A stretch of 32,000 nucleotides of DNA from an uncultured bacterium (GCA_963704705.1 OY969931.1:510001-542000), one strand, 5' to 3'; shown: positions 1 to 32,000, counted from the stretch's first letter. Translations and numbers: made by a program. Notes: generated by a model not told the origin, from the sequence alone.

Positions 1-1
1 A

Positions 2-2248: not shown

Positions 2249-2271
2249 GATTAAACGACAATTCGATTGTT

Positions 2272-2313
2272 AAAGGCCCTTATCAGGTTGCTCACCCTAT
2301 AGGGCCTTTTTTT
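2272..2313 (+). terminator. Rho-independent terminator after the surface-protein gene
   Basis: AAAGGCCCT (2272-2280) pairs with AGGGCCTTT (2301-2309). The GC core is 7 bp, the loop is 20 nt, and a T-run follows (2307-2313). It sits 24 nt after the stop codon. Confidence 0.75.
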
Positions 2314-2347
2314 ATATTGCCGGGCAAACCCACTTTAGTACAATAAC

Positions 2348-2376
2348 TTGCTCCAGTGAAAATTTAGGTTTATAAT
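2348..2376 (+). promoter_or_regulatory. Candidate sigma70-type promoter for the ytxH-like gene
   Basis: TTGCTC (2348-2353), 17-nt spacer, TATAAT (2371-2376), 26 nt upstream of the ATG at 2402. Confidence 0.4.
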
Positions 2377-2401
2377 ATATATACACTATTAACATAAAAA
2401 T

Positions 2402-2824
2402 ATGGGTAAAAAATCTAGTTTAATATTAGGACTACTTGCCGGAACTGCTCTTGGCATACTTTTTGCACCAAAAACCGGAAAAACTTTAAGAAAACAAATT
2501 AAAGAAGAACGCGATAGCGGAGGTTATGGCCTTTCAGCAATAAAAGAAGGTTTTGTTGGAATGGGAAAAGAAGTTGTTGATACAGCTAAAGAGGCTTATG
2601 AATCTGAAGATGTTCAGGAACAGATTTCAATGGCTAGAGAAAAAGCTGAAGAATTGGCTGAAGAAGGGAAAGAACAAGTAAGAAGAGTTGCTAGAAGAGC
2701 TGGCAGAAAAGCAAAAATGACTGCTACCAAAGTAGGACGAAAAGCAGGCAGAAAAGCTAAAAAAACTGCTGCAAAAGTAGGACGAAAAGCTAAGGCATTT
2801 ACAAAAAAGAAAATTGGAAAGTAA
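2402..2824 (+). CDS. YtxH-domain membrane-anchored protein with a Lys/Arg-rich repetitive C-terminus
   Basis: The N-terminus LILGLLAGTALGILFAPKTGKTLRKQIKEE is the hallmark YtxH motif. The C-terminus repeats (A)GRKAK..TA.KVGRKA. A 17-nt direct repeat AAAGTAGGACGAAAAGC occurs at 2729 and 2773. Confidence 0.7.
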   Translation: MGKKSSLILGLLAGTALGILFAPKTGKTLRKQIKEERDSGGYGLSAIKEGFVGMGKEVVDTAKEAYESEDVQEQISMAREKAEELAEEGKEQVRRVARRAGRKAKMTATKVGRKAGRKAKKTAAKVGRKAKAFTKKKIGK

Positions 2825-3644
2825 TGATAAGATAGGGGTTTTAGGTCCAAAATATACTTTCAGCGATCAGGCAGCTGATCAATATATTAAACATGAGAAA
2901 AAGGTTTATTTTTCAGGTATCTGGGATGTTTTTGAAGCTTTAAAAAAAGGCAAAATTCAAAAGGGGATTGTTCCGATTGAAAATACAATTCACGGTACAG
3001 TCCGCGAAACTTTTGATTCTTTATTCTTATCAGATTTAAAAATAATTTATCAGTTTGCGCTGCCCATTCATCATTGCGTGGCTGTTTTGGCAGGCACAAA
3101 AAAAAGTGAAATTAAAAAGGTGATTTCTCATCAACAAGCTTTAAGCCAGTGTCAAAAATATATCAGAAAAAATTTTCCAAAAGCCCAACAGATAGCCTTT
3201 TCTTCAACTGCAGAAGCAATAAGCAGTATGAAAAAAATGCAATCAGGAGTAGCTGCAGTTATTTGTTCTGAGCAGGCAGCAAAAGAAAACGGGCTTAGAA
3301 TTATTGCTAAAAATATTGCGGATCAAAAGGGTAATAAAACTTATTTTTCGGTTTTAGCCCCGGAATTCGCAAAGCCGAAAGGCAAAAATATACGTACTTC
3401 AATAGCATTTCACTTTCAAAAAGACCATCCAGGTACTTTATTCAGTGTATTCAAGGCTTTTAATGATGCAAAAGTGAATATGACAAAAATCGAATCACGG
3501 CCAACATTGGAAAAATGGGGAAATTACATATTTTTTCTGGATTTTGAAGGTGATATGAATGATCCAAAAATTGAGAAGTTGCTTAAGTTAATTGAGAAGA
3601 AAGTCGCTTTATTAAAAATATTTGGTAGTTATTTAGTGAAATAA
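2814..3644 (+). CDS. pheA: Prephenate dehydratase (PDT domain + ACT domain)
   Basis: IGVLGPKYTFSDQAA at the N-terminus; a C-terminal ACT region with the conserved ESRP motif (NMTKIESRPTLEKWGNYIFFLDFEG). The start is a TTG at 2814 that overlaps the upstream gene by 11 nt. The nearby ATG at 2824 is out of frame. Confidence 0.85.
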   Translation: MESNDKIGVLGPKYTFSDQAADQYIKHEKKVYFSGIWDVFEALKKGKIQKGIVPIENTIHGTVRETFDSLFLSDLKIIYQFALPIHHCVAVLAGTKKSEIKKVISHQQALSQCQKYIRKNFPKAQQIAFSSTAEAISSMKKMQSGVAAVICSEQAAKENGLRIIAKNIADQKGNKTYFSVLAPEFAKPKGKNIRTSIAFHFQKDHPGTLFSVFKAFNDAKVNMTKIESRPTLEKWGNYIFFLDFEGDMNDPKIEKLLKLIEKKVALLKIFGSYLVK

Positions 3645-3645
3645 T

Positions 3646-4251
3646 ATGCATAGTTTTAAATTAACAAAGATTAATAAAAATTCATGGTATTTTCCGCTTA
3701 TTATTGTAGTAATATTTTTTTTATTAAGTTATTTTTTTAGAAATCAATATACTCCGATTATCTTTGTTGTAATTTTTTTCTCTTTTACGATAATTTCCGG
3801 CATGCTAACAAAGAAAGTAATTTTGGAGGTTCAAAATAACAATATAATGATTAGAACAAAAAGCAGCGAAGTAATATTTATGACATCAATAAAACCAGAT
3901 CAAATTAAAAAAGCATTATGGAAAGATGAAGGAAAGGGGATAGGCCCGGCAGTTATTTTAAAAATGCCTGATGGTACTGACATTTCTATTGGTACCATGA
4001 ATATAAGTTTTAATTGGGCTCAACCCGTAGAAGAAATTATTAAACCAAATTATTCGTTAGAAGATAAACAATGGAATGATTTTATTCAGGCAATCGGTTT
4101 ACATAGCGAAGTTTTAAACTCCGATGAAATTTTAGCAAATATAGAAAAAACAAAAAAAGTAGTAACTAGAATAAGCATGGGAATTATTATATTTACAGTT
4201 GCCTTGGTTTTAATTTCCGTGGGGCTTCTTTTATGGCTCGATATTTCTTGA
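3646..4251 (+). CDS. Hypothetical membrane protein (2 N-terminal TM helices, soluble middle, C-terminal TM helix)
   Basis: The ATG lies 1 nt after the pheA stop. Hydrophobic segments are YFPLIIVVIFFLLSYFF, IIFVVIFFSFTIISGML and GIIIFTVALVLISVGLLLWL. I recognise no family. Confidence 0.6.
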   Translation: MHSFKLTKINKNSWYFPLIIVVIFFLLSYFFRNQYTPIIFVVIFFSFTIISGMLTKKVILEVQNNNIMIRTKSSEVIFMTSIKPDQIKKALWKDEGKGIGPAVILKMPDGTDISIGTMNISFNWAQPVEEIIKPNYSLEDKQWNDFIQAIGLHSEVLNSDEILANIEKTKKVVTRISMGIIIFTVALVLISVGLLLWLDIS

Positions 4252-4346
4252 TTTGTTTTCCGTTTGAATAAGCCGTATGAATCGCGGTAGAGCAAGGGAA
4301 TTTAAAATCTTTAAGAATTTTGGAAGTTATTCGGTAAGATAAATTT

Positions 4347-5594
4347 CTATTTAAAAATACCGTTTGAGCGAAGATAATGATGTTTAGGTAGTCCCATAAA
4401 ACGGCATTTCTTTAATATTTCCTTGGCTTGCTTTTTTGATTTATAAGTAAGCTTTCCTGTAAGAAATTTAGTTACAATATTGAAAAATCTATTGGATAGA
4501 TATTGAACTTGTTTTGTATCAGTAACAAATTGATATGCTCTGGCATATTGTGAGAAATATTGATTTTGTTTCTTTTTATCCAGCCATAAAAATTCTTTAA
4601 GTCTTGCAATTCTTTTTGTTTCTGTTGTATGTGGATTATATTTGAATCGTTTTTTCCATTCTTTTGATATTCTGGTAATGCTTTTTTGAGGAAATTGAAC
4701 TTTCCCGTCTTTATATTGTAAACCGTGAAAATCAAAAGTTAAGTCATTAATGTTGCCGAATTGGCATTTATCCAGATTAAATTCGAGTTTCAATTTTTTA
4801 ATTTCTGTTTCAAGGTATAGTTTTATTTTTCTAAGTTTAACCGGGTCTTTATCCATTATTATAAAATCATCTCCTACTCTTCTGTACAGTGCAACCTGTT
4901 TTCCAATTATGTTATCAAGGTGATTTACATTCAAATTAAGGAAATGAGGACAAAAAGTCATACCCTGCAAAATACCTGTTCTATATGACATTAATGTTCC
5001 TTTATTAATGAATGGCTGTTTGATTATATTTCTTATGATTTCAAGAACGCGATCTTCAAAATCCATATTTTTTAGAATCTTCAAAATTATTTCATGATCT
5101 ATAAAATCAGCATATTTTTTAATATCCATTCTTAATACATATAATTCTTTACCGTAATTTCTAAGATAGAATCGCCTAACGCTTCTTGATGCGTAATAAC
5201 TGGCTTTATCACTTCTGAATGAATATACATAATCTGAATATGCAGCTGCAATAACCGGTTCGATTTGTCTTAATACGGCCTGACATTTAATTCTGTCTTT
5301 TAAAGTTAAAGAAAATGTGCCTCTGATTCCACCGTCTTTTTTAGGAACTTCGATATATTTTGCAGGTAATAAATTAACACCTGTTTTTAATTCTTTTTGG
5401 ACTGTTGCAAGCAGTTTATCGATATTTATTTCTGCCTTGGAAAGTGTTTGTCCATCAATACCTTTATAGCTATAAGTTTTGCATTTTTCAGTAAATTTTT
5501 TATATAAATCCAAATATGCCTGGCTTATGTTGTCCCAGGACACAATTGCATCATACATCGAAATTGGTTCTTTTGTTTTGAATAAATTCAGCAT
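4347..5594 (-). CDS. Stand-alone prokaryotic reverse transcriptase (415 aa): RT fingers/palm plus an alpha-helical C-terminal extension
   Basis: RT motifs by eye: motifs 1-2 PKKDGGIRGTFSLTLKDRIKCQAV (aa 84-107); YSFRSDKASYYA; motif 3 LRMDIKKYADFIDH (aa 155-167); motif 4 GILQGMTFCPHFLNL; motif 5 LYRRVGDDFIIM (V240-G-D-D243, nt 4866-4877); motifs 6-7 LEFNLDKCQF....FDFHGLQY. There is no endonuclease, nitrilase, primase or other fused domain. Confidence 0.9.
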   Translation of the reverse strand: MLNLFKTKEPISMYDAIVSWDNISQAYLDLYKKFTEKCKTYSYKGIDGQTLSKAEINIDKLLATVQKELKTGVNLLPAKYIEVPKKDGGIRGTFSLTLKDRIKCQAVLRQIEPVIAAAYSDYVYSFRSDKASYYASRSVRRFYLRNYGKELYVLRMDIKKYADFIDHEIILKILKNMDFEDRVLEIIRNIIKQPFINKGTLMSYRTGILQGMTFCPHFLNLNVNHLDNIIGKQVALYRRVGDDFIIMDKDPVKLRKIKLYLETEIKKLKLEFNLDKCQFGNINDLTFDFHGLQYKDGKVQFPQKSITRISKEWKKRFKYNPHTTETKRIARLKEFLWLDKKKQNQYFSQYARAYQFVTDTKQVQYLSNRFFNIVTKFLTGKLTYKSKKQAKEILKKCRFMGLPKHHYLRSNGIFK

Positions 5595-5925
5595 TTTTTT
5601 TGTATTCTCTGAAACGCCATTACAATACAGTTACGCCATAAAAATAATATAAATGACTAACTGTTAGTGATATGCATACAACTTACTGATCAATCCATAG
5701 GTGATCTGAAAGTGGGTTATGAAGAGAATATGAATATATTCTTAGAATAACTCACTAAGAGGATCATTAGTGGATAGTGAAGAAAGTATGTATGCTTTAC
5801 AATTCCCACTGTTATTCCCGGCATCTGTCAGGGAAATAATTATAATTTCTTAAATAACAGCCGCAATGTTTTAGATGCATCCCTTCTCAAAGATAAAATT
5901 GTAATGGCATTTCAAAGAACAAATC
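5595..5925 (-). ncRNA. Candidate structured noncoding RNA / long 5' leader co-transcribed with the RT gene (possible RT template or scaffold RNA)
   Basis: There is no ORF longer than 35 codons on either strand. A 17-bp long-range stem forms on the minus-sense RNA: UGAAAUGCCAUUACAAU (5914->5898) pairs with AUUGUAAUGGCGUUUCA (5626->5610), with a single U-G wobble. The same position would be an A-C mismatch on the plus sense. The stem encloses 271 nt that contain several local helices. The 3' arm ends 15 nt before the RT ATG. A promoter lies just upstream of the 5' arm. Confidence 0.5.
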
Positions 5926-5930
5926 GTATT

Positions 5931-5939
5931 ATTATACCA
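5931..5939 (-). promoter_or_regulatory. Extended -10 promoter (TGgTATAAT) driving the RT leader/ncRNA
   Basis: The minus strand reads TTTTGTGGTATAATAATACG. TATAAT is 5936->5931 with TG at 5939-5938. The -35 is weak (TTAGCT). The predicted start is ~5925, about 10 nt upstream of the 5' stem arm. Confidence 0.5.
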
Positions 5940-5996
5940 CAAAATTAACAAAAAGCTAAATATTGTATATGTATAGGTTAAGTTTTGCCTTTATTC

Positions 5997-6025
5997 TGGT
6001 AAAAAAGGCAATTTTGTAGTATAAT
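5997..6025 (+). promoter_or_regulatory. Candidate promoter for the ABC-like/PLD/PrsW cassette
   Basis: TGGTAA (5997-6002), 17-nt spacer, TATAAT (6020-6025), 26 nt upstream of the ATG at 6051. It overlaps an 8-bp hairpin (5985-5992 / 6004-6011). Confidence 0.3.
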
Positions 6026-6050
6026 AATCAGAAATAAAAAATAAAAATAA

Positions 6051-7772
6051 ATGCAATACGAGCTCACAAAAAAACAAATAATCTCGGAATCAAATAAAAT
6101 TCGCAGCGAATTTAGGCGAATAAACTTGGAAAAAAGCCAAAAAAAATATATTGGAAATTTTCTAAAAAAACACAAAAAGACTTTTTACATGCTTATTATT
6201 CTTACTGCAACTGAAACGCTTATAAGCATAGCTTTGCCGATAATAAGTCATCTTTATCTGGAAAAAAGTTTTGATTTGATGAGTTACAGTACTTTTCTGA
6301 TTGTTGGAATTAGTCTGTTTGTTTTAATTATTTTGTTTTTAATTAATAGTTTTTACAGGATTTTTGCCACACAGAAGTTCACAATGGAGGCTATTAATAA
6401 CGTACGTGAAGCATGGTACATTTATTATTTAAAGCACTCAGCTGCTTTTAAAGCAAACTTTGACGGGAAAAAATTGATGACCAAGTTCTTATATCATATT
6501 CAGTTATTAAGGCTTGGAGTAAGTAATGTTCTTGCAACAGGGCTTCAGGCTCTTTTGATGTATATTGCGATTTTGTTGTTTTCAATATTTTTCAATCCAA
6601 AGTTGTTTTTGGTTTTATGGCTTTCTGTGCCGCTTTTTATAATAATATTTCTTATCACAGATTATATAGGACGACATTATATTACCCGCGAACAAACATT
6701 TAACAGCAGAATAGTCGAACATTTAGCTGATACATTATTGAATTTTTCTCTGTTTAAATCACAGGGCAGGGAACGGGCAAAACTTAAAGACTTTGATAAT
6801 TTGATTGAAGTAGATACTTATTTTAGAATTAGAAGACAATTATGGCTTCAATTCAGTAATAGATTTTTGTATGGAATTATTCTTCTTGTTGGAGTGATTT
6901 TCTATTTTGTTCAGATTTACTGGCCATTTGTAGAATTTGATTCTCTTACAAATGTGGCAGCGACAGGTATTATAATGGCATATTTTGTGAAAGTTTTATA
7001 TTCCACAGCAAGAGTAGGAATGTTTTATGAGGCATTTAGATTAGGTTTGAGATTAGTAGTGCCAAAATTTCCATATAATATAAATAAATCCATCCTTAAA
7101 CTTCCAAGTTGGAAAAAATTGAGATTCCATAGCAAAAAAACAAAGCTCGCAAAATATGGAAATTACATAAAAGATTTTAATTTTGAAATTGAAAAAGGGA
7201 AAAAATATCTTGTCTATTCGAATGGATCATATGGAAAATCAACACTGGCAAAATATTTAACCGGTACAAAATCCAATTCGAGTATAATTGTAAATCTCGA
7301 TAAAAGGCGATTCACTTCCGATATTTTCACTTCTTACAAAAATAACAGCTTCTTTATTTCCGAGGAAATCCGTTTTGATATTACTCTGGCTGAGTACATT
7401 TTTGCTAAAGGTCTTGATGATATTTCAAGAGCTGATATTGATGAGTTAATAGATAAGCTGAAAAAATACGAAATATTTGATTTTTTATTTGATCATAAGA
7501 GTTTTATTGGAAGAGAGGTTGTATCAGGGGATCTTTCAACACAGGAAAATGCACTTTTGCAAATTGCACATTGTATTATGAATCCTAAAAAACTTATTTC
7601 TATTGATCACAGCTGTTTTGATGAATCTTATTCACAGATTATAAGAGGGTTGGAAATTTTGTTAGAAGAATGTCCTAAAACCACATATGTTTTCTTTTCA
7701 AATAAACCAAATAATTTATTTAAGTATGACAAAACGTTCGAGCTTAATAAGGCCGAGTTTAAAGAGATATAA
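6051..7772 (+). CDS. ABC exporter-like protein (N-terminal 6-TM type-1 exporter domain + C-terminal nucleotide-binding-like domain with degenerate catalytic motifs)
   Basis: The TM-rich region is aa ~45-330. The NBD-like region has Walker A-like SNGSYGKST, a signature-like LSTQE (instead of LSGGQ), Walker B LISIDHS (D-H instead of D-E), no Q-loop Gln (FFISEE), and FFSNKP where the H-loop His is expected. These alignments are by eye. Confidence 0.65.
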   Translation: MQYELTKKQIISESNKIRSEFRRINLEKSQKKYIGNFLKKHKKTFYMLIILTATETLISIALPIISHLYLEKSFDLMSYSTFLIVGISLFVLIILFLINSFYRIFATQKFTMEAINNVREAWYIYYLKHSAAFKANFDGKKLMTKFLYHIQLLRLGVSNVLATGLQALLMYIAILLFSIFFNPKLFLVLWLSVPLFIIIFLITDYIGRHYITREQTFNSRIVEHLADTLLNFSLFKSQGRERAKLKDFDNLIEVDTYFRIRRQLWLQFSNRFLYGIILLVGVIFYFVQIYWPFVEFDSLTNVAATGIIMAYFVKVLYSTARVGMFYEAFRLGLRLVVPKFPYNINKSILKLPSWKKLRFHSKKTKLAKYGNYIKDFNFEIEKGKKYLVYSNGSYGKSTLAKYLTGTKSNSSIIVNLDKRRFTSDIFTSYKNNSFFISEEIRFDITLAEYIFAKGLDDISRADIDELIDKLKKYEIFDFLFDHKSFIGREVVSGDLSTQENALLQIAHCIMNPKKLISIDHSCFDESYSQIIRGLEILLEECPKTTYVFFSNKPNNLFKYDKTFELNKAEFKEI

Positions 7773-8931
7773 AAAGCATTTCTTTATGCTTGTGGGATTT
7801 CTACTGGTGACTGCTTACCCTGTTTATTTGTTGTCTTCTGATCTTTCAGCTCATTTTATTATTGAACATCAATATAGTCCTAATTTTGAGGTTAATGTTG
7901 ATTATGATTTGGATTTAAATGTTTATGAAAATATTAACAATCAAATAAGTTTTACTGAGAAAGTATTGGACTCTATCAATAATGCACAAGAAGAAATATA
8001 TATAGCAATGTATTCATTTAATATAGAAGAAATTAGAGATGCATTGGTTAAGGCTGAAGAAAGAGGTGTTAAGGTAGTTCTTTATTATCATAATTCCAAG
8101 AGTTTGAAGATGGATGAATTTTTGGGAGATGTTAAAGACAAATTAGATGTCAGATATGTAGCAAAAATTGAAGGTGGAGAAAGTTATTATAATCTTCATC
8201 ATAAATTTATGATTGTTGATCCGAATCTTGAGACCAGGATTTTATTAACCGGCCCATGGAACTGGTCACATTTTCAGGAGGATTTAGATCCTAATATTAT
8301 AATCGAAACTCATGATAAAGAAATTATAAGTAGCTATATGCAGGAAATCGGAAGAATTGACAGAGGTTATTCTGGATATTTTAAATTCAGGGATTTAACT
8401 TATCTTCCTTGGGATAAATTGATTAATTATCCGAATGGTGAAAGTGTTGAAATTTGGTGGTCACCTGGAAGAAATGCCAATTCAATCGAAGGAAGGGTTA
8501 TTGCATTAATTAAAGAAGCAAAAAATAAAATTGATGTAAGTATGACTCAATTTGATTCGTATCAAATTGCTACATGGCTTATAAGAAGGGCTAAAGACGG
8601 AGTTAAGGTAAGAATGATAGTAAGTGCCAATACTGTTGAAGACGAACAATCAATTGTTCCATGGTTTAAAAATAAAATTAAAGAATTGAATTTAAATATT
8701 GAAGTGTATGAAGGAGGCACTTTAGCTACAGAAGAGAATCCTGAGTATTCGATTTTTCATCATCACAATATGATTATTGACGATAAAGTAACATTTACAA
8801 GCACGGCAAACTGGACGTTTGGAGGATTTTTTGCGAATGATGAAAACAGTATGGTAATTACAAGTGAAAAAATTACAAAAGATTTTCAAAATATATTTGA
8901 TAACTATTTAAATTACCTAAATAATAAATAA
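7726..8931 (+). CDS. Membrane-anchored phospholipase D / HKD-superfamily protein (two PLD-like halves)
   Basis: The first half has an intact HxK(x)4D motif, YNLHHKFMIVD...LLTGPWNWS. The second half reads FHHHNMIIDDKVTFTSTANWT, which keeps His, Asp and the S-x-N but lacks the Lys. The ORF-track start at 7687 overlaps the ABC gene by 86 nt. The ATG at 7726 (MTKRSSLIRPSLKRYKKHFF + TM helix LVGFLLVTAYPVYLL) gives a typical positive-inside signal anchor. The ATG at 7786 is an alternative start. Confidence 0.7.
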   Translation: MTKRSSLIRPSLKRYKKHFFMLVGFLLVTAYPVYLLSSDLSAHFIIEHQYSPNFEVNVDYDLDLNVYENINNQISFTEKVLDSINNAQEEIYIAMYSFNIEEIRDALVKAEERGVKVVLYYHNSKSLKMDEFLGDVKDKLDVRYVAKIEGGESYYNLHHKFMIVDPNLETRILLTGPWNWSHFQEDLDPNIIIETHDKEIISSYMQEIGRIDRGYSGYFKFRDLTYLPWDKLINYPNGESVEIWWSPGRNANSIEGRVIALIKEAKNKIDVSMTQFDSYQIATWLIRRAKDGVKVRMIVSANTVEDEQSIVPWFKNKIKELNLNIEVYEGGTLATEENPEYSIFHHHNMIIDDKVTFTSTANWTFGGFFANDENSMVITSEKITKDFQNIFDNYLNYLNNK

Positions 8932-24845: not shown

Positions 24846-25649
24846 ATGAACGATAACGAATTATACAAACTCTGCCAGGAGTATGGAGTAAAGGCTCGCA
24901 AATGGAAAAATAAATTTATTTCTTTGCTCCCTGAAGTTGCAAAAAGAGAACTTTATAAAAAGAAAGGTTTTGAATCCATTTATGAATTTGCAGCAAAAGT
25001 GGGAGGAGTTGGAAGAAAAACAGTTGAAGCGGTTTTTCAGGTTCAAAAATATATTGAAGATAAACCGGCACTTAAAGCTGTTTTGCCAAAAGTTGGAATA
25101 AATAAGATTAGAACAATTGCAACACTGGCAACCCAGGAAAATCAAATTGAACTTGCTGATAAAGTTATTAAAATGTCTAAACCTGCACTTGAACTTTATG
25201 CTAAAGAACAAAGAGCGCCAAAAATTGAAACTCCTCCCGGGAGGAAAATGAGAATTTTAAGTTTTCATGTAGATGAAGCGGTTGAATTGGAATTAAGAAA
25301 ATTAAAAAATGAAGGAGAAACATTTAATGATGTAATGAGAAAACTTCTTGCACTTGTTCCGAAAGAGAAAGTGGTTAAGCCGCGCAAGACAAAAAAGTCG
25401 AAATCGAGGCCGGTTCCTGCCCAACAACGACGCGAAGTTTCAGCTGAAACAAATGGTAAATGTTCAATCCCGGGCTGCAACAAGCCGGCTGAAGAAATCC
25501 ATCACAAAAAACCATGGGCAATATTTAAAAAACACGATGAGCTACAAGCCCTTTGCAAAGGCCATCATGAGCTCAAACATCAAGGTGACACGCTGATCGA
25601 TAAAAAATTTAGAATGTATAAAATGCAGGCAGCATTAAATTCGGGTTAA
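24846..25649 (+). CDS. HNH endonuclease-domain protein with a helical N-terminal domain
   Basis: C-terminus CSIPGCNKPAEEIHHKKPWAIFKKHDELQALCKGHHELKH (CxxC...HH...CxxH HNH/zinc-finger layout), preceded by a basic linker KPRKTKKSKSRP. Confidence 0.75.
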   Translation: MNDNELYKLCQEYGVKARKWKNKFISLLPEVAKRELYKKKGFESIYEFAAKVGGVGRKTVEAVFQVQKYIEDKPALKAVLPKVGINKIRTIATLATQENQIELADKVIKMSKPALELYAKEQRAPKIETPPGRKMRILSFHVDEAVELELRKLKNEGETFNDVMRKLLALVPKEKVVKPRKTKKSKSRPVPAQQRREVSAETNGKCSIPGCNKPAEEIHHKKPWAIFKKHDELQALCKGHHELKHQGDTLIDKKFRMYKMQAALNSG

Positions 25650-25714: not shown

Positions 25715-27790
25715 ATGGATTTCAACATATTCTTTGAGGGAAAATTTGTTTATCACGGGGGCGCGGAAAAGCCACGTGGTCAAGAAGCTGCTTCACAAAA
25801 AACAGGAAAAGACTCATTTAATGAAAGAATGGATTATATTGAACAAAAAATGAAAGCCCTGGAAGACAGAATAGCGGAAAAATTGGCAGAATTAAAAGGT
25901 AAAAGAACAAGATTAAGCACAAGGAGAAAAATTAAAAGATTGGAAAAAACAGTCAAAGACATAAGAGAAAAAATAAAGAAATTAAAAGAAATGAGGGAAA
26001 AAGACAGGGAAAAGGCTATTGTTATAGTTAATAAAAAACTTGATGACGTGATGAAGAGAGAAGGTGTTAAGCTACCGGAAAATCCTGCAAAAGCACCGAA
26101 TACGCCTTCAAAGTATGGACCAAGTGAATCCAAAATAGGTCCGCGGGAATACACGAAATTAACTAAAAAACAGGAAATTGCTATTAAGCAGCTTGGTAGA
26201 TACATCGCAATGGATCTTAATAAACTTAATGAAGTAGGTTATTTAAGATCTGATATTAGAAATGTTTTAAATGTAAGAGTTAGACAACTTGTTTTTATTT
26301 TGGGATATGATCCGGATAAACCGCATTTAAGTTTAAAACATCATGAATATTTTAAATTACCAAACGGTTATTCTCTTGCTCTTTACAAGTGGAAAAAAGA
26401 TCCCCAATCAAAACCTAATGTAATGTTTTATAAAGGTTCTGAACTGGTACTTTATCAGCAAGACGGCGGATTCCAGGCACCGGAAGGTGACACACATATT
26501 GATAAAGGAAGGCAATATGCGGAGATGGTAAAATGTTTTCATTTATTTCCGCAAACTTTTTATGTTGAAAAAGGGAAATTGGTAATTAAAAACGGAAAAG
26601 AGGATGAATTTCATAAACTCTTAGGGGATATCATGAAATTCAGCGGAAAATTTAAATGGGATGTCAGAATTCACGGTTGTGCATTAGGCTATAGTCCGGA
26701 TCAAAAAGGGCTGATAATTACACCTTACAATACTGATTTTAAATTTCTAATTAAACCTCCTTCACCAAGAATGGTTTTTGAAAGAGGTGTGGAGCCTGAT
26801 CATATTGTTTACGAGACGCCTGAGAAAAAAGCTGAAAGGGCAAATAAATTTAGAGAACAGGAGAAGGCTAAAAAAGATGCTGAAAAATTGAAAGCGCTTC
26901 AAAATCGTGAGATTGAAAGAGGAAAGGCAAAACTGGAAAACAGGATTGACGACAAAAAATACAAAAGTATTGTTCAAAAGGATATAAATCCAAAAAACCC
27001 TTATGAATTCAGAATAATTGCCAAAGATAAAAAAGCTGAGAAGCTTATAAGTAAAACAAGAATCAATGAACTTCTTAAATTAAAAAATTGCAAAAGTGTT
27101 TTGTTTGTAACAATTACAGGACCAAACGGGAAGAAAAGAGAAGGTATGTTTTATCCTGGTCAGGATACATGTTATGAGATGGTGAACGATAAACAAACTG
27201 ATCAAAGGCTTAGATTCGTTAAAGGAGATCATTTTAAAATTGCATTTGCAGAGCCGAGTAAAGAGAATTACAGAAAATTAAATCCAAAATTAAAAAGAAA
27301 TATTAAAGAACCGGTTAAAGAAAAGTCCGAATTGGATGATTTTAAAAAATTGCCGACTCTTAAGGATTATGAACAAAGAGATTTAGCAAAAAAAGCGCGG
27401 CTTTCTCAATCAAAAGAGCAGCAAGAAAAAAACAAAGCAAACTATGAAAAAATGAAAAAGCTTTTGGGAACAACATTCAGTAAATTTAAACCTAATCAAA
27501 ATAATCCAACTGAATTTAAAATAACTTCAAACTCATTGGCAAAACTTAAGATGAAAGAATTATTTGCTGGATTAAAAAACTTTAAAGATGAATCTGTACG
27601 TGTTTCAATTACCGATAAATCAGGGAAAAAACGCTTTGGGGTATGTCTTCCGGGGCAAAACCCTCCTGCGATTTACAGAATAGAAAACGGAAAACAAACA
27701 AATAATGAAATGAAATTTTTTAGAAACGAATTAATCAGGGTAGAATTTTCTAAATCAAAACCAAAACAAAAACCTAATGGAAAAAAATAG
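25715..27790 (+). CDS. Large lysine-rich hypothetical protein (coiled-coil N-terminus, central globular region, two ~90-aa C-terminal repeat modules)
   Basis: 691 aa with no signal peptide or TM helix. The internal duplication is aa 424-516 versus 592-683 (shared NP.EF.I...V.(V/F).IT...GKKR.G...PGQ.....Y...N.KQT.....F). Its 3' end overlaps the next gene's start by 14 nt. Confidence 0.7.
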   Translation: MDFNIFFEGKFVYHGGAEKPRGQEAASQKTGKDSFNERMDYIEQKMKALEDRIAEKLAELKGKRTRLSTRRKIKRLEKTVKDIREKIKKLKEMREKDREKAIVIVNKKLDDVMKREGVKLPENPAKAPNTPSKYGPSESKIGPREYTKLTKKQEIAIKQLGRYIAMDLNKLNEVGYLRSDIRNVLNVRVRQLVFILGYDPDKPHLSLKHHEYFKLPNGYSLALYKWKKDPQSKPNVMFYKGSELVLYQQDGGFQAPEGDTHIDKGRQYAEMVKCFHLFPQTFYVEKGKLVIKNGKEDEFHKLLGDIMKFSGKFKWDVRIHGCALGYSPDQKGLIITPYNTDFKFLIKPPSPRMVFERGVEPDHIVYETPEKKAERANKFREQEKAKKDAEKLKALQNREIERGKAKLENRIDDKKYKSIVQKDINPKNPYEFRIIAKDKKAEKLISKTRINELLKLKNCKSVLFVTITGPNGKKREGMFYPGQDTCYEMVNDKQTDQRLRFVKGDHFKIAFAEPSKENYRKLNPKLKRNIKEPVKEKSELDDFKKLPTLKDYEQRDLAKKARLSQSKEQQEKNKANYEKMKKLLGTTFSKFKPNQNNPTEFKITSNSLAKLKMKELFAGLKNFKDESVRVSITDKSGKKRFGVCLPGQNPPAIYRIENGKQTNNEMKFFRNELIRVEFSKSKPKQKPNGKK

Positions 27791-28892
27791 TAAAAAAATT
27801 AGAAAATTTTTTGCACAATTGGCACTGGTGCTTGTATTAAGCGCAATGCTTATCTCGTTTTCAAATTCAGTATTGGCAGCTGCTGGAGATGCTGTGGGCC
27901 AGAATAATGCAACAAGTGGTTCAACCCCGGTTGATAATCCGAATGCATCAACTGCTCCATCAACACCTACAACTTCAACATCTGGTACGCAGCCAATAAC
28001 TGCTCCCGGTGCAGGTAAGGAGAATTTAATTTTTGTGCCACTTGATACAAGTGCATATCAGGATTTACCTCACCTTACACAGGTAACTCCTACTGGTATG
28101 TTAAACGAATTTGTAAGCGGAATAATCAAAAACGGTAAATGGATTTTGGGAGCTTTTGCAGTGCTTTATATCGTTGTTGCAGCTATAAAATTAATAATAG
28201 CAGGTGATAACGAAGATACTGTTACAAAACAAAAAAATGCAATTATGTATGGAATCATAGGTTTGGTTGTAATTGGATTTGCAAATGATATAACCAGAGT
28301 TTTGTCTGTGGCATGCGCTCCGGGCCAGATTGATTGTGCAAAAGGCGGATTTTTAAAAGATCCGGCCAATATGGTTCAGCAGGCAGCCTTATTTACTCAA
28401 ACAACAAGAATACTCATAACATTTATTAAATATGCTATCGGAGGCATTGCAGTTTTGATGCTTGTAAGGAATGGTTTGAGACTTGTTGCTTTGGCAGGAA
28501 ATGAAGAAAGTGTGACAATTGATAAAAAGAATCTTATTTATACATCAATTGGTTTGGTTTTAATTATTCTTGCAAGCAGTTTTGTCGATAAAATTTTATT
28601 CATTGTTGATCCTTTAAAATACTCAACAATTACAGGAGTTGAGCCGGCTATCAATCCAACAAGGGCTGCTCAGGAAGTTGTGGGTATAACAAACTGGGCG
28701 GTTTTATTTACGGCTCCCCTGGGGATTTTAATGTTGATTGCGGGTGCTTTAATGTATGCGGCATCTGCCGGAAACGAGGAGCAAATGACGAAAGCAAAGC
28801 GTTTAATTATGTTCGCAATTATTGGTATGGCAGTAATTTACGGTGCTTTTGCCATTGTTAGTACCGTTATATCAGGTCAATTTATTCCGTAA
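27777..28892 (+). CDS. Secreted/membrane protein with three tandem TrbC/VirB2-like (type IV secretion 'pilin') modules
   Basis: Signal peptide (FAQLALVLVLSAMLISFSNSVLAAA), then a Pro/Thr/Ser-rich linker, then three TM-loop-TM hairpins with the loop motif AG(D/N)EE: IIAGDNEDTVTKQKNAIMYGIIGLVVIG (nt ~28098-28292), ALAGNEESVTIDKKNLIYTSIGLVLII (~28368-28592) and ASAGNEEQMTKAKRLIMFAIIGMAVIYGAFAIV (~28659-28877). Confidence 0.75.
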   Translation: MEKNSKKIRKFFAQLALVLVLSAMLISFSNSVLAAAGDAVGQNNATSGSTPVDNPNASTAPSTPTTSTSGTQPITAPGAGKENLIFVPLDTSAYQDLPHLTQVTPTGMLNEFVSGIIKNGKWILGAFAVLYIVVAAIKLIIAGDNEDTVTKQKNAIMYGIIGLVVIGFANDITRVLSVACAPGQIDCAKGGFLKDPANMVQQAALFTQTTRILITFIKYAIGGIAVLMLVRNGLRLVALAGNEESVTIDKKNLIYTSIGLVLIILASSFVDKILFIVDPLKYSTITGVEPAINPTRAAQEVVGITNWAVLFTAPLGILMLIAGALMYAASAGNEEQMTKAKRLIMFAIIGMAVIYGAFAIVSTVISGQFIP

Positions 28893-28899
28893 TTAATTT

Positions 28900-29847
28900 A
28901 TGAAAACAAAAAACTTTCTTAAATCATTGGTTCTGGTTCTTACATTGGCTACTTTATGCCTTACAATTAAGCATGTTTTTGAAACAAGCATTGTGAATGC
29001 GGCCCTTGATACTACTTATTTGGACAAAATTCAAAATGTTACGGATTTACCAACATTTGACAGTTCTCATGGGCAGGCAATTCAAAGACCTGGAGTTTCG
29101 AATATAACCAGCGCAGTATTTTTTGTGTTGGATATGCTTAAATTTTTAATAGGAGGTGTTGCGGTAATAATACTTATTCTCATCGGAGTTCGTTTAATAA
29201 TTGCCCGCAAAAAAATCGATGAAGTATGGCCTAAACAAAAAGAACATCTGATAATGATTGCTACTGGATTTGTATTAATAATGCTCGCTGATTATTTGGT
29301 TAAAAGGGTGTTATTTGGTGCTGAAGGCGAAGTATATCAATCAGAGGCATCTGTTCAGTTAGCAGCAGGAGCCGCCACAGAACAGATTAAAGGTATTTAT
29401 AATTTAGCCATGATTCTAGTAGGACTGTTAGCTGTTTTGATGACAATTATTGCCGGATTCAGATTATTAATAAGTGCAGGTAATGAGGAAGCTCAAACCA
29501 AAGTAAAAAAACAGATGACATGGCTTATAATTGGTTTATTTGTTATTGGTGTCGCAGAATTTGTTGTTCAGGATTTTATATTTCCAAACAAAGGAGCACA
29601 GATTCCCGCAGCAGATCAAGGTATAAAACTAATTGTAAGCTTTACAAATTTTGCTGCAGCCTTTATTTCAATCATTGCATTTATTGTGTCATTGTATGGA
29701 GGTTATTTATATGTAATTGCTGCAGGAAATGAAGAACAGACCACGAAGGCTAAAAAGGTACTTATGGGTGCGATTATAGCCCTTATTCTAGGGCTTGGAG
29801 CATTTGCTGTAGTTAATAGTGTGATTCAGCTTAAGCCAGGAGCTTAA
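28900..29847 (+). CDS. Paralogous protein with three TrbC/VirB2-like pilin modules (the first is degenerate)
   Basis: Signal peptide, then modules IIARKKIDEVWPKQKEHLIMIATGFVLIM (degenerate loop), ISAGNEEAQTKVKKQMTWLIIGLFVIGVAEFVV and IAAGNEEQTTKAKKVLMGAIIALILGLGAFAVVN. Confidence 0.75.
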   Translation: MKTKNFLKSLVLVLTLATLCLTIKHVFETSIVNAALDTTYLDKIQNVTDLPTFDSSHGQAIQRPGVSNITSAVFFVLDMLKFLIGGVAVIILILIGVRLIIARKKIDEVWPKQKEHLIMIATGFVLIMLADYLVKRVLFGAEGEVYQSEASVQLAAGAATEQIKGIYNLAMILVGLLAVLMTIIAGFRLLISAGNEEAQTKVKKQMTWLIIGLFVIGVAEFVVQDFIFPNKGAQIPAADQGIKLIVSFTNFAAAFISIIAFIVSLYGGYLYVIAAGNEEQTTKAKKVLMGAIIALILGLGAFAVVNSVIQLKPGA

Positions 29848-29850
29848 ATA

Positions 29851-29879
29851 TTGTAAAAAACTTAATTTTCTGCTATAAT
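29851..29879 (+). promoter_or_regulatory. Candidate promoter for the pilin-PKD gene
   Basis: TTGTAA (29851-29856), a 17-nt spacer ending in TGc, then TATAAT (29874-29879), i.e. an extended -10, 25 nt upstream of the ATG at 29904. Confidence 0.5.
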
Positions 29880-29903: not shown

Positions 29904-32000
29904 ATGAAAAAATTATCAAAATATATCGGAATAATATTTGTAGCTACATTGTTTGCTACTTTTCTTATGAATATTCAAGTCGCATCTGCTGACCTATGCA
30001 GTGAACTTGCACAGTCAACAGGAGGCTTTTTTAGCTGCGGAAGTAAAGAAGTTACAACATTCACTCAGTTCCAGGGCGGTTTACAGCCACCTTCGGCTGA
30101 AGGATATGATCCTACTCTTACACAGCAAACTGATCTAAGAGATTTCATTGTTAATGCAGTGAATTTTGTACTTGGATTTTTAGGCCTTGTTGCAGTTGTA
30201 ATGGTAATCTACGGAGGATTCATGTATGTTACGGCCGCGGGACAGGAAGAGCAAACAACCAAAGGAAAGAAAAGCGTAATGTACGCGATGATTGGTATAG
30301 TTATTATTCTTATATCTTATGCATTAGTTAATACAGTTATTAAAGGAGTCGGAAAAGGAACAGATGCTGGAATTAATTCCGGGACTCAGCAACTTGCAGG
30401 AGCAGCTCCTGAAAATTTAACGGGTGATCAGACTCAGGCAATTCAAAGATTATTTTATGCTGCGGCATTGCAGGTTCAAAGAGCAGCTGAAGATTTGGCT
30501 ACTAATTATTCTCATTATGTTGATGTTGACGATGCATTGGCTCAGCTTGAAGCAGTACCGTATGTTGATCGCGCAGACCAATTACATGTATTTTTAGGAG
30601 ATATTAAACGTGCATTAAGTAATATTATTTCAGCTTCAGGTGAGTTGAGCAGAACTTCTGAAGCAGCTAAGTTTGCAGAAGATTATGTTGATACATTTTT
30701 AAATCAATCTCAGCAGCAATTGACTGCTGATTGGACTACTTGGTGGTCGGACAACAGTGCTGATCTTCAATATGAAATAGATGCAATACTTACAGAGTCA
30801 GGAGCAGAAGGTGAAAGTATATGGAAAGCAAATCTGCTTGATTTTGCTGATGCAGTTGAAAAAATCATTAGTAATTTAAATGATTTAAAAAAACAGATTG
30901 AAAGCTCAGGATTAGTTACAACTTCTGAAACTGATTTTGGTGTAGCTTTTGATAGAGCTGTAAATAGTTTGGAAAATCTAATACCAATCGGTTTTGAAGT
31001 TCCGACAAATCAAAAAGTGATTGACGCACTTGAAGCATTAAGTGATTTACACACCGTGGTTCAGAACATCAAGTTTGTAGCAGCAATTATTAATGCGGAT
31101 GTTACTAAAGGCAATGCTCCGTTAATAGTAAATGTTGACGCACTTAATTCAGTAAGACCGGATTATGAAAGTATTAATCAGGATGATATTGAATGGGATT
31201 TTGGTGACGGAACCATTGTTGAAGGTAAATTCGCTACTTCTCACATTTATAGGGAAACAGGAAGTTTTGTAATTAAACTTACAATTAAAGGTGATTCTGC
31301 TAAAGGAATTGCTTCTGGTGTTGCTTATCAGGATGTTAAAATCGGTCCGCCTGCATCTCAGATTAATTTAAATGTAACTGTAGGAGACAGATTCCTTGGT
31401 TATTTGAGTTTCTACAAAGACGGATTCCTGGTTATAGATAAAAATAGATTAAACGTAACTTTAACAGAAGCCCGTGATATTGGTATTACATTTGATGCTT
31501 CTGAAACAAGAGGCGGTTCGCAGTCAGAACAGGAACAGGAAGCAGGAGGAACATATATTCAAACTGTTTCATGGGATTTTGGTGATGGAAGCGATACAAT
31601 ATTTGGAGAAATGGTTGCGAATGATGTACAAACACATTATTACGGTGAAGAGGGGACATATCCTGTTATAATTGAAGTTGTTGATTCAAGAGGAATTAGA
31701 GACAGAAAAGTATTTGAGGTAGTTGTTGATTCACCGGCAGCAAGAATTGATTTGAAGCCTGGAACAACAGCGAGAATTAATGAGGATGTAACATTTGATG
31801 GTGGTCAGTCTTCAACTGATGGCGGCCAGATTTCAGGTTACAAATGGAGTGTTTCAAATCCTCAATTAAAATATTCAGCGGAAGAAACCGATGAAAGTTT
31901 TACTAGTTCATTTGAAAGCCCGGGAGTTTATGATGTTTCACTAGTTGTTAGTGACAACCTGGGAAATACAGCAACTGATAATACGAAACTTAAAATTGAA
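29904..32000 (+). CDS. Large secreted protein, 3'-truncated at the window edge: signal peptide + one TrbC/VirB2-like pilin module + ~260-aa helical region + at least three PKD-like domains. Not present in the supplied ORF track.
   Basis: My own translation from the ATG at 29904 runs 699 codons to the window end without a stop. MKKLSKYIGIIFVATLFATFLMNIQVASA (signal peptide); FVLGFLGLVAVVMVIYGGFMYVTAAGQEEQTTKGKKSVMYAMIGIVIILISYALVNTV (pilin module, nt ~30132-30341); PKD hallmarks WDFGDG at nt 31194 and 31571; and VTFDGGQS...YKWSV...GVYDVSLVVSDNLGNT. Confidence 0.85.
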   Translation, partial: MKKLSKYIGIIFVATLFATFLMNIQVASADLCSELAQSTGGFFSCGSKEVTTFTQFQGGLQPPSAEGYDPTLTQQTDLRDFIVNAVNFVLGFLGLVAVVMVIYGGFMYVTAAGQEEQTTKGKKSVMYAMIGIVIILISYALVNTVIKGVGKGTDAGINSGTQQLAGAAPENLTGDQTQAIQRLFYAAALQVQRAAEDLATNYSHYVDVDDALAQLEAVPYVDRADQLHVFLGDIKRALSNIISASGELSRTSEAAKFAEDYVDTFLNQSQQQLTADWTTWWSDNSADLQYEIDAILTESGAEGESIWKANLLDFADAVEKIISNLNDLKKQIESSGLVTTSETDFGVAFDRAVNSLENLIPIGFEVPTNQKVIDALEALSDLHTVVQNIKFVAAIINADVTKGNAPLIVNVDALNSVRPDYESINQDDIEWDFGDGTIVEGKFATSHIYRETGSFVIKLTIKGDSAKGIASGVAYQDVKIGPPASQINLNVTVGDRFLGYLSFYKDGFLVIDKNRLNVTLTEARDIGITFDASETRGGSQSEQEQEAGGTYIQTVSWDFGDGSDTIFGEMVANDVQTHYYGEEGTYPVIIEVVDSRGIRDRKVFEVVVDSPAARIDLKPGTTARINEDVTFDGGQSSTDGGQISGYKWSVSNPQLKYSAEETDESFTSSFESPGVYDVSLVVSDNLGNTATDNTKLKIE
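31112..32000 (+). other. Three PKD-like Ig domains at the C-terminal part of the pilin-fusion protein (the last is cut by the window edge)
   Basis: PLIVNVDA....IEWDFGDGT...SHIYRETGSFVIKLTIKG; ITFDASET...VSWDFGDGS...HYYGEEGTYPVIIEVVDSRG; VTFDGGQSSTDGGQISGYKWSV....FESPGVYDVSLVVSDNLGNTA. Confidence 0.7.

Follow-up and report, generated by a model that had tools for sequence, protein, structure and literature searches.

A 32,000-nt stretch of DNA (GCA_963704705.1 OY969931.1:510001-542000, hereafter the window) from an uncultured bacterium of Peregrinibacteria type contains two adjacent paralogous genes, A and B, each encoding a signal peptide followed by three hairpins that resemble the TrbC/VirB2 pilins of type IV secretion systems (T4SS). 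These are followed by gene C, which runs into the end of the window, and by gene D, which was identified on a public contig (L001) that carries an identical A protein and extends the locus beyond the window. The positions of all features are collected in Table 1. According to the calls of the open reading frames (ORFs), A and B are spaced by 7 nt.

Table 1. Genes, modules and other features of the locus (positions within the 32,000-nt window, except where contig L001 is named)
Feature	Position	Strand	Extent	Description
Gene A (P1)	27777..28892	+	371 aa	ORF; signal peptide ~aa 1-35, disordered Ser/Thr/Pro-rich aa 36-95, then three pilin-like hairpins
A module 1	28089..28322	+	aa 105-182	Loop AGDNEDTVTKQKN; own orthologue group, self-score 96.7 bits
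A linker 1	28323..28379	+		..SVAC APGQIDC AKGGFLKDP.., Cys pair
A module 2	28380..28613	+	aa 202-279	Loop AGNEESVTIDKK; conserved ITFIKYxIGG helix
A module 3	28653..28889	+	aa 293-371	Loop AGNEEQMTKAKR; canonical type, nearest B module 3 and C (G3) module
Gene B (P2)	28900..29847	+	315 aa	ORF; signal peptide and three pilin-like hairpins; paralogue of A
B module 1	29092..29328	+	aa 65-143	Degenerate loop ARKKIDEVWPKQKEH
B module 2	29362..29595	+	aa 155-232	Loop AGNEEAQTKVKK
B module 3	29608..29838	+	aa 237-313	Loop AGNEEQTTKAKK; canonical type
Gene C (G3)	29904..32000, runs past window end	+		Signal peptide, one hairpin, then PKD repeats
C module (seventh)	30123-30359			Loop AAGQEEQTTKGKK; PF18895
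Gene C, complete	L001 4397-8848		1483 aa	Signal peptide, one hairpin, seven PKD repeats
Gene D	L001 8859-11186		775 aa	Next gene after C
Lys-rich gene	25715..27790	+	691 aa	Upstream of A; stop overlaps A start by 14 nt
HNH-like gene	24846-25649		267 aa	ORF preceding the Lys-rich gene
Reverse transcriptase gene	4347-5594	-		RVT_1, E 2.2e-16
Large envelope protein gene	2-2248	+		Five FlgD-Ig-like repeats, three SLH domains, PKD trace

Triple-hairpin architecture of genes A and B

The family PF18895 (T4SS_pilin, cutoff 26.6 bits) was found in three separate stretches of A (E 5.4e-26, 90.9 bits) and in three separate stretches of B (E 3.1e-25, 88.5 bits), and a hidden Markov model (HMM) built from the six modules recovered exactly three modules per protein, each with 93-104 bits. 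Aligned with one another, the six modules need hardly any gaps and share 16-38% pairwise identity, with a maximum of 42% when the module of gene C is added. By hydropathy each protein has one N-terminal signal-like segment and six transmembrane (TM)-like segments, the signal peptides being judged by inspection, and a recurring loop of the type AGNEE..K.K sits between the two helices of each pair, as located from hydropathy and motif positions. This motif is shared by the loops AGNEEQMTKAKR, AGNEEAQTKVKK, AGNEEQTTKAKK and AGNEESVTIDKK, of which AGDNEDTVTKQKN is a variant one residue longer. In the first module of B, with its loop ARKKIDEVWPKQKEH, the AGNEE motif has been lost throughout the family, and the consensus of 76 orthologues likewise lacks it.

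An AlphaFold2 model of A, run on an alignment of 78 sequences, presents three helix-loop-helix hairpins (helices 105-142/146-176, 196-238/243-274 and 294-329/334-366) with local confidence values (pLDDT) of 85-94, and values below 50 for residues 35-75. The hairpins are connected by two conserved linkers that are predicted to be extracytoplasmic. The triple-hairpin architecture of A and B is confirmed as real and far beyond chance. A first-pass annotation made from the sequence alone had already described two adjacent paralogues with three TrbC/VirB2-like modules each, a signal peptide and three TM-loop-TM hairpins per protein, a recurring charged-loop motif and a degenerate first module in the second gene, and this description is upheld by the exact ORFs, the triple PF18895 matches, the cross-matches of the family to PF04956 given below, the hydropathy of both proteins, the model of A and the conservation of the degenerate loop. 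The six modules that it had counted in 2.1 kb are present, but a seventh in gene C and a probable eighth in gene D had been missed.

The modules are members of PF18895 and, judging from profile comparisons, very probably of the VirB2/TrbC superfamily. With the TrbC/VirB2 family PF04956 (cutoff 27.9 bits) the window proteins A and C scored 25.9 and 22.3 bits and B gave no match; at E<=0.01 this family was matched by 61 of 78 three-module homologues (best 6.8e-12) and by 27 of 58 single-module homologues (best 1e-8). Smaller numbers of homologues also matched DUF6112 and DUF4134, the latter of which we take to be the Bacteroides TraE-type VirB2 family. Moreover B reached 52.4 bits with NF045849 (cutoff 40), an NCBIfam model for a 'pilin-like conjugal transfer protein' of Mycoplasma integrative and conjugative elements (ICEs). 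A (30.7) and C (36.6) stayed below this cutoff and span, together with the single-hairpin pilin P0092 described below, 31-38 bits.

No transporter or permease family was matched at E<=0.01 across the 78 homologues, and Foldseek returned nothing significant for either structural model (best PDB match E 0.59, no transporter or channel fold), so that the generic 6-TM permease which the first-pass annotation had named as an alternative finds no signal in either Pfam or the fold search. These fold searches had too little discriminating power to confirm a pilin fold. When all PDB chains were searched with the profiles of the seven modules and of 58 single-hairpin members, only chance-level matches were obtained (bacteriocin AS-48, E 0.32; MacB, E 0.095), and a tblastn search of 72,556 plasmids with one module gave no match.

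The four-gene cassette and its genomic context

Homologues of A form 88 clusters down to 28% identity, 87 of them with three modules and one with four. Species-representative genomes were scanned and gave 80 loci, almost every one of which carries the label Peregrinibacteria, Peribacteria or Gracilibacteria. A pair of neighbouring three-module genes occurs in 76 of 81 loci and, where the contig reaches far enough, a C-type protein of 1400-1800 aa with one module comes after B in at least 62 loci and a D-type PKD protein of ~780 aa comes next in 54. The median intergenic gaps are 2 nt (A-B), 55 nt (B-C) and 11 nt (C-D). This cassette is always placed divergently beside secE-nusG-rplK-rplA, then tmk, dut, folD and purF, and the window is identical in order. 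The constancy of the secE-nusG-rplK-rplA neighbourhood points to a locus that belongs to the core genome and is inherited vertically, as opposed to a mobile element. Downstream of D the content is variable and includes genes for a Cys-rich anchored surface protein, a fumarase-like and an FtsJ-like protein.

Gene C contains one PF18895 stretch (36.1 bits, cutoff 26.6) and its complete product ends in a C-terminal hydrophobic (TM) segment with a basic tail. The product of gene D starts with a Pro-rich N-terminus predicted to be cytoplasmic, which is followed by a signal anchor, a hairpin with a ARRDDKITKRKG loop and six PKD repeats; D probably carries a divergent eighth module. We observed that both C and D are giant surface proteins in which a pilin-like hairpin is predicted to serve as the membrane anchor. 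Pilin-adhesin fusions of this kind find no mention in the T4SS literature examined. A relationship with the Pam pili of the Candidate Phyla Radiation (CPR), which are built from Ig-like pilins by donor-strand exchange and encoded in the pam operon (preprint 10.64898/2026.03.03.709456), was considered and rejected, as PamA/PamB belong to another fold class and the similarity lies in Ig/PKD domains. In C and D, Pam-related matches were limited to weak hits of PamR (42.7 and 22.8 bits, cutoff 300) to the PKD/Ig domains.

Position-specific HMMs were built from 76 genomes for the seven module positions, and each position constitutes a separate orthologue group, with self-scores of 97-127 bits and cross-scores of 18-80 bits. 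One subgroup, nearest to solitary pilins, unites module 3 of A, module 3 of B and the C module (cross-scores 60-80 bits); modules 1 and 2 of both A and B make up another (47-63 bits). The last modules of A and B and the C module share 58-67% identity with solitary single-hairpin pilins of the same clade. The separation into orthologue groups indicates that the A/B duplication and both triplications predate the radiation of these genomes and that each hairpin has been kept distinct since; it is also what would be expected of non-redundant, position-specific roles in a defined complex, unlike a homopolymer. A one-to-one correspondence of the first modules and of the second modules between A and B was considered and discarded, since first and second modules cross-score about equally and the third modules alone pair clearly.

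One solitary pilin of Peregrinibacteria, P0092 (133 aa, single hairpin; L082 10001-10402), adjoins murB, lies far from T4SS genes and is 63% identical to the C module. A pilin of this type could be the major subunit which the proteins of the cassette cap or nucleate. In the class Gracilibacteria the T4SS components have been reported as dispersed and VirB6 homologues as undetectable, and the placement of both the cassette and the solitary pilin away from virB4 fits this published dispersal. Peregrinibacteria entries were sought for their VirB4 status in the supplement of PMC12102498, and none were found in the part of it that was available.

Other genes of the window are described here for completeness. 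The Lys-rich protein encoded upstream of A has no Pfam or NCBIfam match and no TM segment, and an internal repeat is apparent in it (two ..G(P/K)(N/S)GKKR.G...PGQ.. segments). Its gene is restricted to 11-12 close relatives, in which it stands between secE/nusG and the cassette, secE being directly upstream elsewhere; it is lineage-specific and probably outside the conserved cassette. The ORF that precedes it is likewise confined to close relatives. Relatives of this ORF have an HNH-like motif and occupy varying positions in related loci, which suggests that a mobile HNH gene was inserted beside the cassette in this lineage. A scan for promoters and terminators stayed at chance level (22 sites, 21.1 expected); the best sigma-70-like match on the + strand, at 29851-29879 (TTGTAA-17-TATAAT, extended TG), falls in the 56-nt gap before C and carries no statistical weight. 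For the reverse transcriptase gene a surrounding diversity-generating retroelement (DGR) or group II intron was considered and discarded, since positions 1-8000 hold no template/variable repeat pair and Rfam gave no match; the enzyme may be of retron, orphan DGR or another type. At the beginning of the window a large envelope protein is encoded, an anchored surface protein of S-layer type in what is a CPR genome.

Other concatemers and possible modes of assembly

In an exhaustive HMMER search of 1.84 billion cluster representatives (50% identity) with a single-module profile, 50,849 matches were obtained at E<=1e-3, 6,257 at E<=1e-10 and 220 at E<=1e-30. Since a single module tops out at ~88 bits, the last 220 must hold more than one module, which gives a lower bound of at least 220 concatemers, or at least 0.4% of all matches and ~3.5% of the confident ones. 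Among the matches listed, 150 concatemers have 2-17 matched stretches each, and our own HMM found three modules in 97, four in 25 and 5-12 in 21 of the 145 to which it was applied. The best 120 matches of a word-index search are all single hairpins of 89-144 aa, and the normal form of the family has 90-145 aa. Concatemers are a minority but recurrent form. The family norm of one hairpin in ~100-150 aa, assumed at the outset, agrees with this and the multi-module architecture is not the common one; it is, however, less unusual than had been implied, with at least 220 concatemer clusters and 2-17 hairpins per chain. The linkers of the other concatemers have a median length of 11 aa and many are of 0-6 aa.

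Several of these concatemers deserve mention on their own. A protein annotated as Altiarchaeales has 8-10 modules, and a protein of 1775 aa with 12-17 modules shares its archaeal neighbourhood; altogether we observed archaeal proteins of 617, 1039 and 1775 aa with ~8-17 hairpins (L084 10001-15328; L085 4175-9247). This neighbourhood is composed of genes for CPSase, a Cas4-like protein, ribosomal L39e, the concatemer and an Mrp antiporter, and no T4SS or PKD genes are nearby. In an independent CPR-like lineage (L086 9925-16481) an 8-hairpin protein, a single pilin of 155 aa, a pilin-PKD fusion of 383 aa and a multi-PKD protein of 718 aa are encoded together; this array follows the cassette logic of A-D with the hairpins partitioned differently. 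Gracilibacteria have a 4-module family of 450-900 aa with the order Bm1-Am2-Bm2-Bm3 and long N-terminal extensions. In many concatemers (P0209-P0353) the last module is canonical and nearest to solitary pilins, and the internal modules are of the first- or second-module type, which hints at a general N-to-C polarity. The idea that 6- and 8-module proteins found elsewhere are fusions of A and B was tried and rejected, as the position-specific HMMs assigned their modules with margins of 0-10 bits and no order A1-A2-A3-B1-B2-B3 was seen; in their sequences the higher-order concatemers of other lineages look like independent concatenations. The Patescibacteria T4SS literature that we searched describes arrays of separate pilin genes and does not mention fusion within one protein.

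The signal peptide would place the N-terminus of A and B outside and, as each hairpin goes in and back, the linkers and C-termini would also lie outside and the charged loops inside. Outside C-termini are supported by genes C and D, where the hairpins precede PKD ectodomains that must be outside. With both ends of a hairpin on the same side, the VirB2-type topology would be kept while hairpins are freely concatenated or directly followed by a PKD ectodomain. Linker 1 of A (SVACxPGxxxCxxGGFLKDP) ranks with the most strongly conserved segments of A, G190, G191, F192, L193 and P196 being conserved in at least 90% of 78 sequences. Cysteines in the linkers always number zero or two (two in 34 of 76 sequences for A linker 1, and in 8 of 76 for B linker 1), and this occurrence in pairs suggests extracytoplasmic disulfides.

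These linkers also bear on the proposal that A and B are made as polyproteins, cleavage within the linkers releasing six single-hairpin pilins, so that the two genes would be equivalent to a compact pilin array. The second helices would run from inside to outside like the core of a signal peptide, which makes a signal peptidase cut possible in principle, and Saccharibacteria have separate pilin arrays of similar size. Nevertheless no cleavage motif is common to the four linkers, two of which (..FIVDPLKYS.. and ..IFPNKGAQIP..) are without a small-x-small site near the helix end, while the conserved A linker 1, with its paired cysteines, has a proline right behind its sole A-x-A-like site (SVAC-A-P). 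This conservation and the 0-6 aa linkers of many other concatemers leave little room for processing, and the lack of a shared motif likewise argues against a polyprotein. Since the three-module count is moreover constant in 87 of 88 clusters, with no split versions among the loci, we regard such processing as very improbable.

Alternatively A and B may be true pilus subunits, that is covalent pseudo-trimers which polymerise with lipid and are extruded by VirB4, with C and D as minor or tip pilins carrying PKD adhesins. The pilins of solved T4SS pili have both termini close to the outer surface, where short external linkers could bridge neighbouring subunits. The homology to conjugative pilins (PF18895, PF04956, NF045849) and the resemblance of the last modules of A and B and of the C module to solitary pilins of the same clade speak for such a pilus, reviews hold a pilus to be likely in Patescibacteria and, with T4SS parts dispersed in the class Gracilibacteria, the distance to virB4 is not decisive. 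We consider this rather unlikely all the same, because the seven position-specific orthologue groups leave no obvious major subunit in the operon, most C orthologues have a C-terminal TM anchor that would tether C to the membrane, a regular helical lattice could hardly accommodate concatemers that reach 17 hairpins and have almost no linkers, and no T4SS ATPase was found within 10 kb in ~87 contexts.

The reading that we tentatively prefer, with a probability of about 0.45, is that A and B are uncleaved 6-TM concatemers which join the hairpins of C and D in an assembly of fixed composition that anchors PKD adhesin arms. A and B would be exported via Sec with six TM helices each, the termini and linkers outside and the three charged loops in the cytoplasm, and each would stay uncut as a chain of three hairpins of the VirB2/TrbC superfamily. 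Together with C and D they would form a hetero-oligomer of about eight different hairpins, which may be a lipid-embedded, pilin-like bundle, a ring or a pilus base, and which would anchor and present the long PKD arms (~1300 aa of PKD repeats in C) on the host-dependent Peregrinibacteria cell. Fusion would then fix the stoichiometry of the non-equivalent hairpins as well as the order in which they adjoin, and be the one-chain counterpart of the separate, divergent and essential pilin arrays of Saccharibacteria.

We counted two further lines of evidence in favour of this assembly. The first is that the linkage of a concatemer with a hairpin-PKD protein is repeated independently in the CPR-like lineage described above. 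The second comes from known systems: the T4SS locus of Ca. Southlakia epibionticum encodes six separate, divergent and essential VirB2-like pilins (Wang et al. 2023, PMC10633639), and pilin-like subunits are essential as parts of the channel also where a T4SS forms no pilus. The assembly may be extruded by a VirB4 machine whose genes lie elsewhere, or may serve such a machine to nucleate a pilus of solitary single-hairpin pilins.

Several observations weigh against the fixed assembly. No gene for VirB4, VirB6, VirB3 or a coupling protein was found in the 32-kb window or in the 9.5 kb downstream on L001, and no T4SS gene within 10 kb on either side in ~80 related loci. The first-pass annotation had correctly seen no VirB4/VirB6/VirD4-type genes in the window; it had suggested that the ATPase and channel genes lie just downstream of position 32000, where PKD surface proteins were found instead. 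The link of the modules to T4SS consists of remote sequence homology only, no solved T4SS pilin being reached by sequence profiles or fold search, and the hairpin of D obtained moderate support in a comparison with the single-hairpin pilin family (hhalign probability 83%, E 9e-6). In the model of A the overall pTM is 0.47 and the packing between hairpins is not confidently predicted, which makes a bundle or ring a conjecture. In addition, the positive-inside charge bias is weak (net -0.7 to +1.0 for loops, -0.2 to -3.0 for linkers), the C-terminal hydrophobic segment is present in 40 of 60 full-length C orthologues, and membership of A-D in one operon is not proof of their physical assembly. 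From the options first put forward (protofilament unit, processed polyprotein or membrane platform), a fixed-composition membrane or base assembly is thus favoured and the processed polyprotein disfavoured, a choice that sequence cannot settle.

The lack of T4SS genes nearby in any context would also be expected if A and B were pilin-derived proteins that are now independent of T4SS and adhesins and act as a 6-TM channel, in lipid handling or as a scaffold that organises the membrane, their co-location with PKD proteins reflecting a shared envelope function. The archaeal concatemers of 8-17 hairpins, which stand beside housekeeping and Mrp-antiporter genes and have no PKD partner, are in accord with such a role, as are the reports that VirB6 homologues are absent in the class Gracilibacteria, leaving room for recruited membrane platforms. 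However, neither a transporter or channel family nor such a fold shows any similarity, C and D use the same hairpin as a membrane anchor, and the linkage of a concatemer with a hairpin-PKD protein recurs in an independent lineage. An independent membrane role therefore seems to us distinctly unlikely.

A broader and speculative reading, which we would call unlikely, is that concatenated VirB2-like hairpins (2-17 per chain, in CPR bacteria and Altiarchaeales-type archaea) constitute a pilin-derived class of polytopic proteins forming closed, lipid-filled rings or short tubes of fixed stoichiometry that need no adjacent T4SS ATPase. If this were true, the ring of Peregrinibacteria would be a membrane hub or a pilus-nucleating cap for PKD arms of more than 1000 aa, and it might replace the VirB6 platform reported missing in the class Gracilibacteria. 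The fusions would in that case be Rosetta-stone evidence that pilin arrays are ordered hetero-oligomers and not interchangeable antigenic variants.

Comparison with known systems

Patescibacteria are monoderms and yet, unlike other monoderms, carry VirB2-like pilins, which are essential for growth on the host in the one genetically tractable species. The covalent fusions are natural experiments in this respect, as they indicate which hairpins are neighbours and in what ratio, and speak for copies that are not equivalent but make up different parts of a single assembly. The cassette offers a testable candidate for host attachment in Peregrinibacteria, and the series from 2 to 17 hairpins, archaea included, suggests a reuse of the pilin hairpin as an all-purpose unit for constructing membrane proteins.

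In the rotor subunits c/K of A-type and V-type ATPases, two-helix hairpins are duplicated, triplicated and up to 13-fold fused, and the fusion sets the stoichiometry of the ring and lets the hairpins diverge. The concatemers described here resemble them, by analogy and not by homology, in that an oligomerising two-helix hairpin is concatenated a variable number of times per chain. They differ in having no sequence relationship to these subunits and in their signal peptides, extracellular linkers and adhesin partners, and a ring geometry is conjectural for them.

With the TrbC/VirB2 pilins (PF04956) the modules have in common the signal peptide, the two hydrophobic helices with a short charged loop and a modelled helix-loop-helix fold. 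Unlike the TrbC/VirB2 pilins of Gram-negative T4SSs, A and B have three hairpins per chain and no adjacent T4SS genes, and belong to a monoderm host. The likeness to the Mbov_0395/MMCAP2_0565 proteins of Mycoplasma ICEs (NF045849), for which B exceeds the cutoff, concerns a monoderm T4SS and fits the MPF-FATA ancestry that has been proposed for the T4SS of Patescibacteria. Those proteins are single hairpins of ~80 aa encoded inside an ICE, whereas the concatemers are encoded in a core chromosomal locus without ICE genes.

The closest known systems are already published, namely the arrays of PF18895/VirB2-like pilin genes in Patescibacteria, in which two to eleven genes with pilin domains stand in tandem or one gene apart (Quinonero-Coronel et al. 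2025, PMC12102498). The locus described here belongs to the same Pfam family and the same superphylum, has divergent hairpins encoded side by side, and qualifies as such an array with three consecutive PF18895 genes and probably a fourth. In number of hairpins it compares with Ca. Southlakia epibionticum as 3+3(+1+1) with six separate genes. The arrays are composed of single-hairpin pilins, the usual PF18895 form of ~90-145 aa, whereas in A (371 aa) and B (315 aa) three hairpins each are covalently joined. Moreover a pilin lies near virB4 in 1135 of 1948 assemblies of the published survey, while the cassette is away from virB4 and includes a hairpin-PKD adhesin fusion of 1483 aa. The conserved covalent triplets, the four-gene cassette with its hairpin-anchored PKD giants away from T4SS genes, and the series of 2-17 hairpins that extends into archaea have apparently not been described before.

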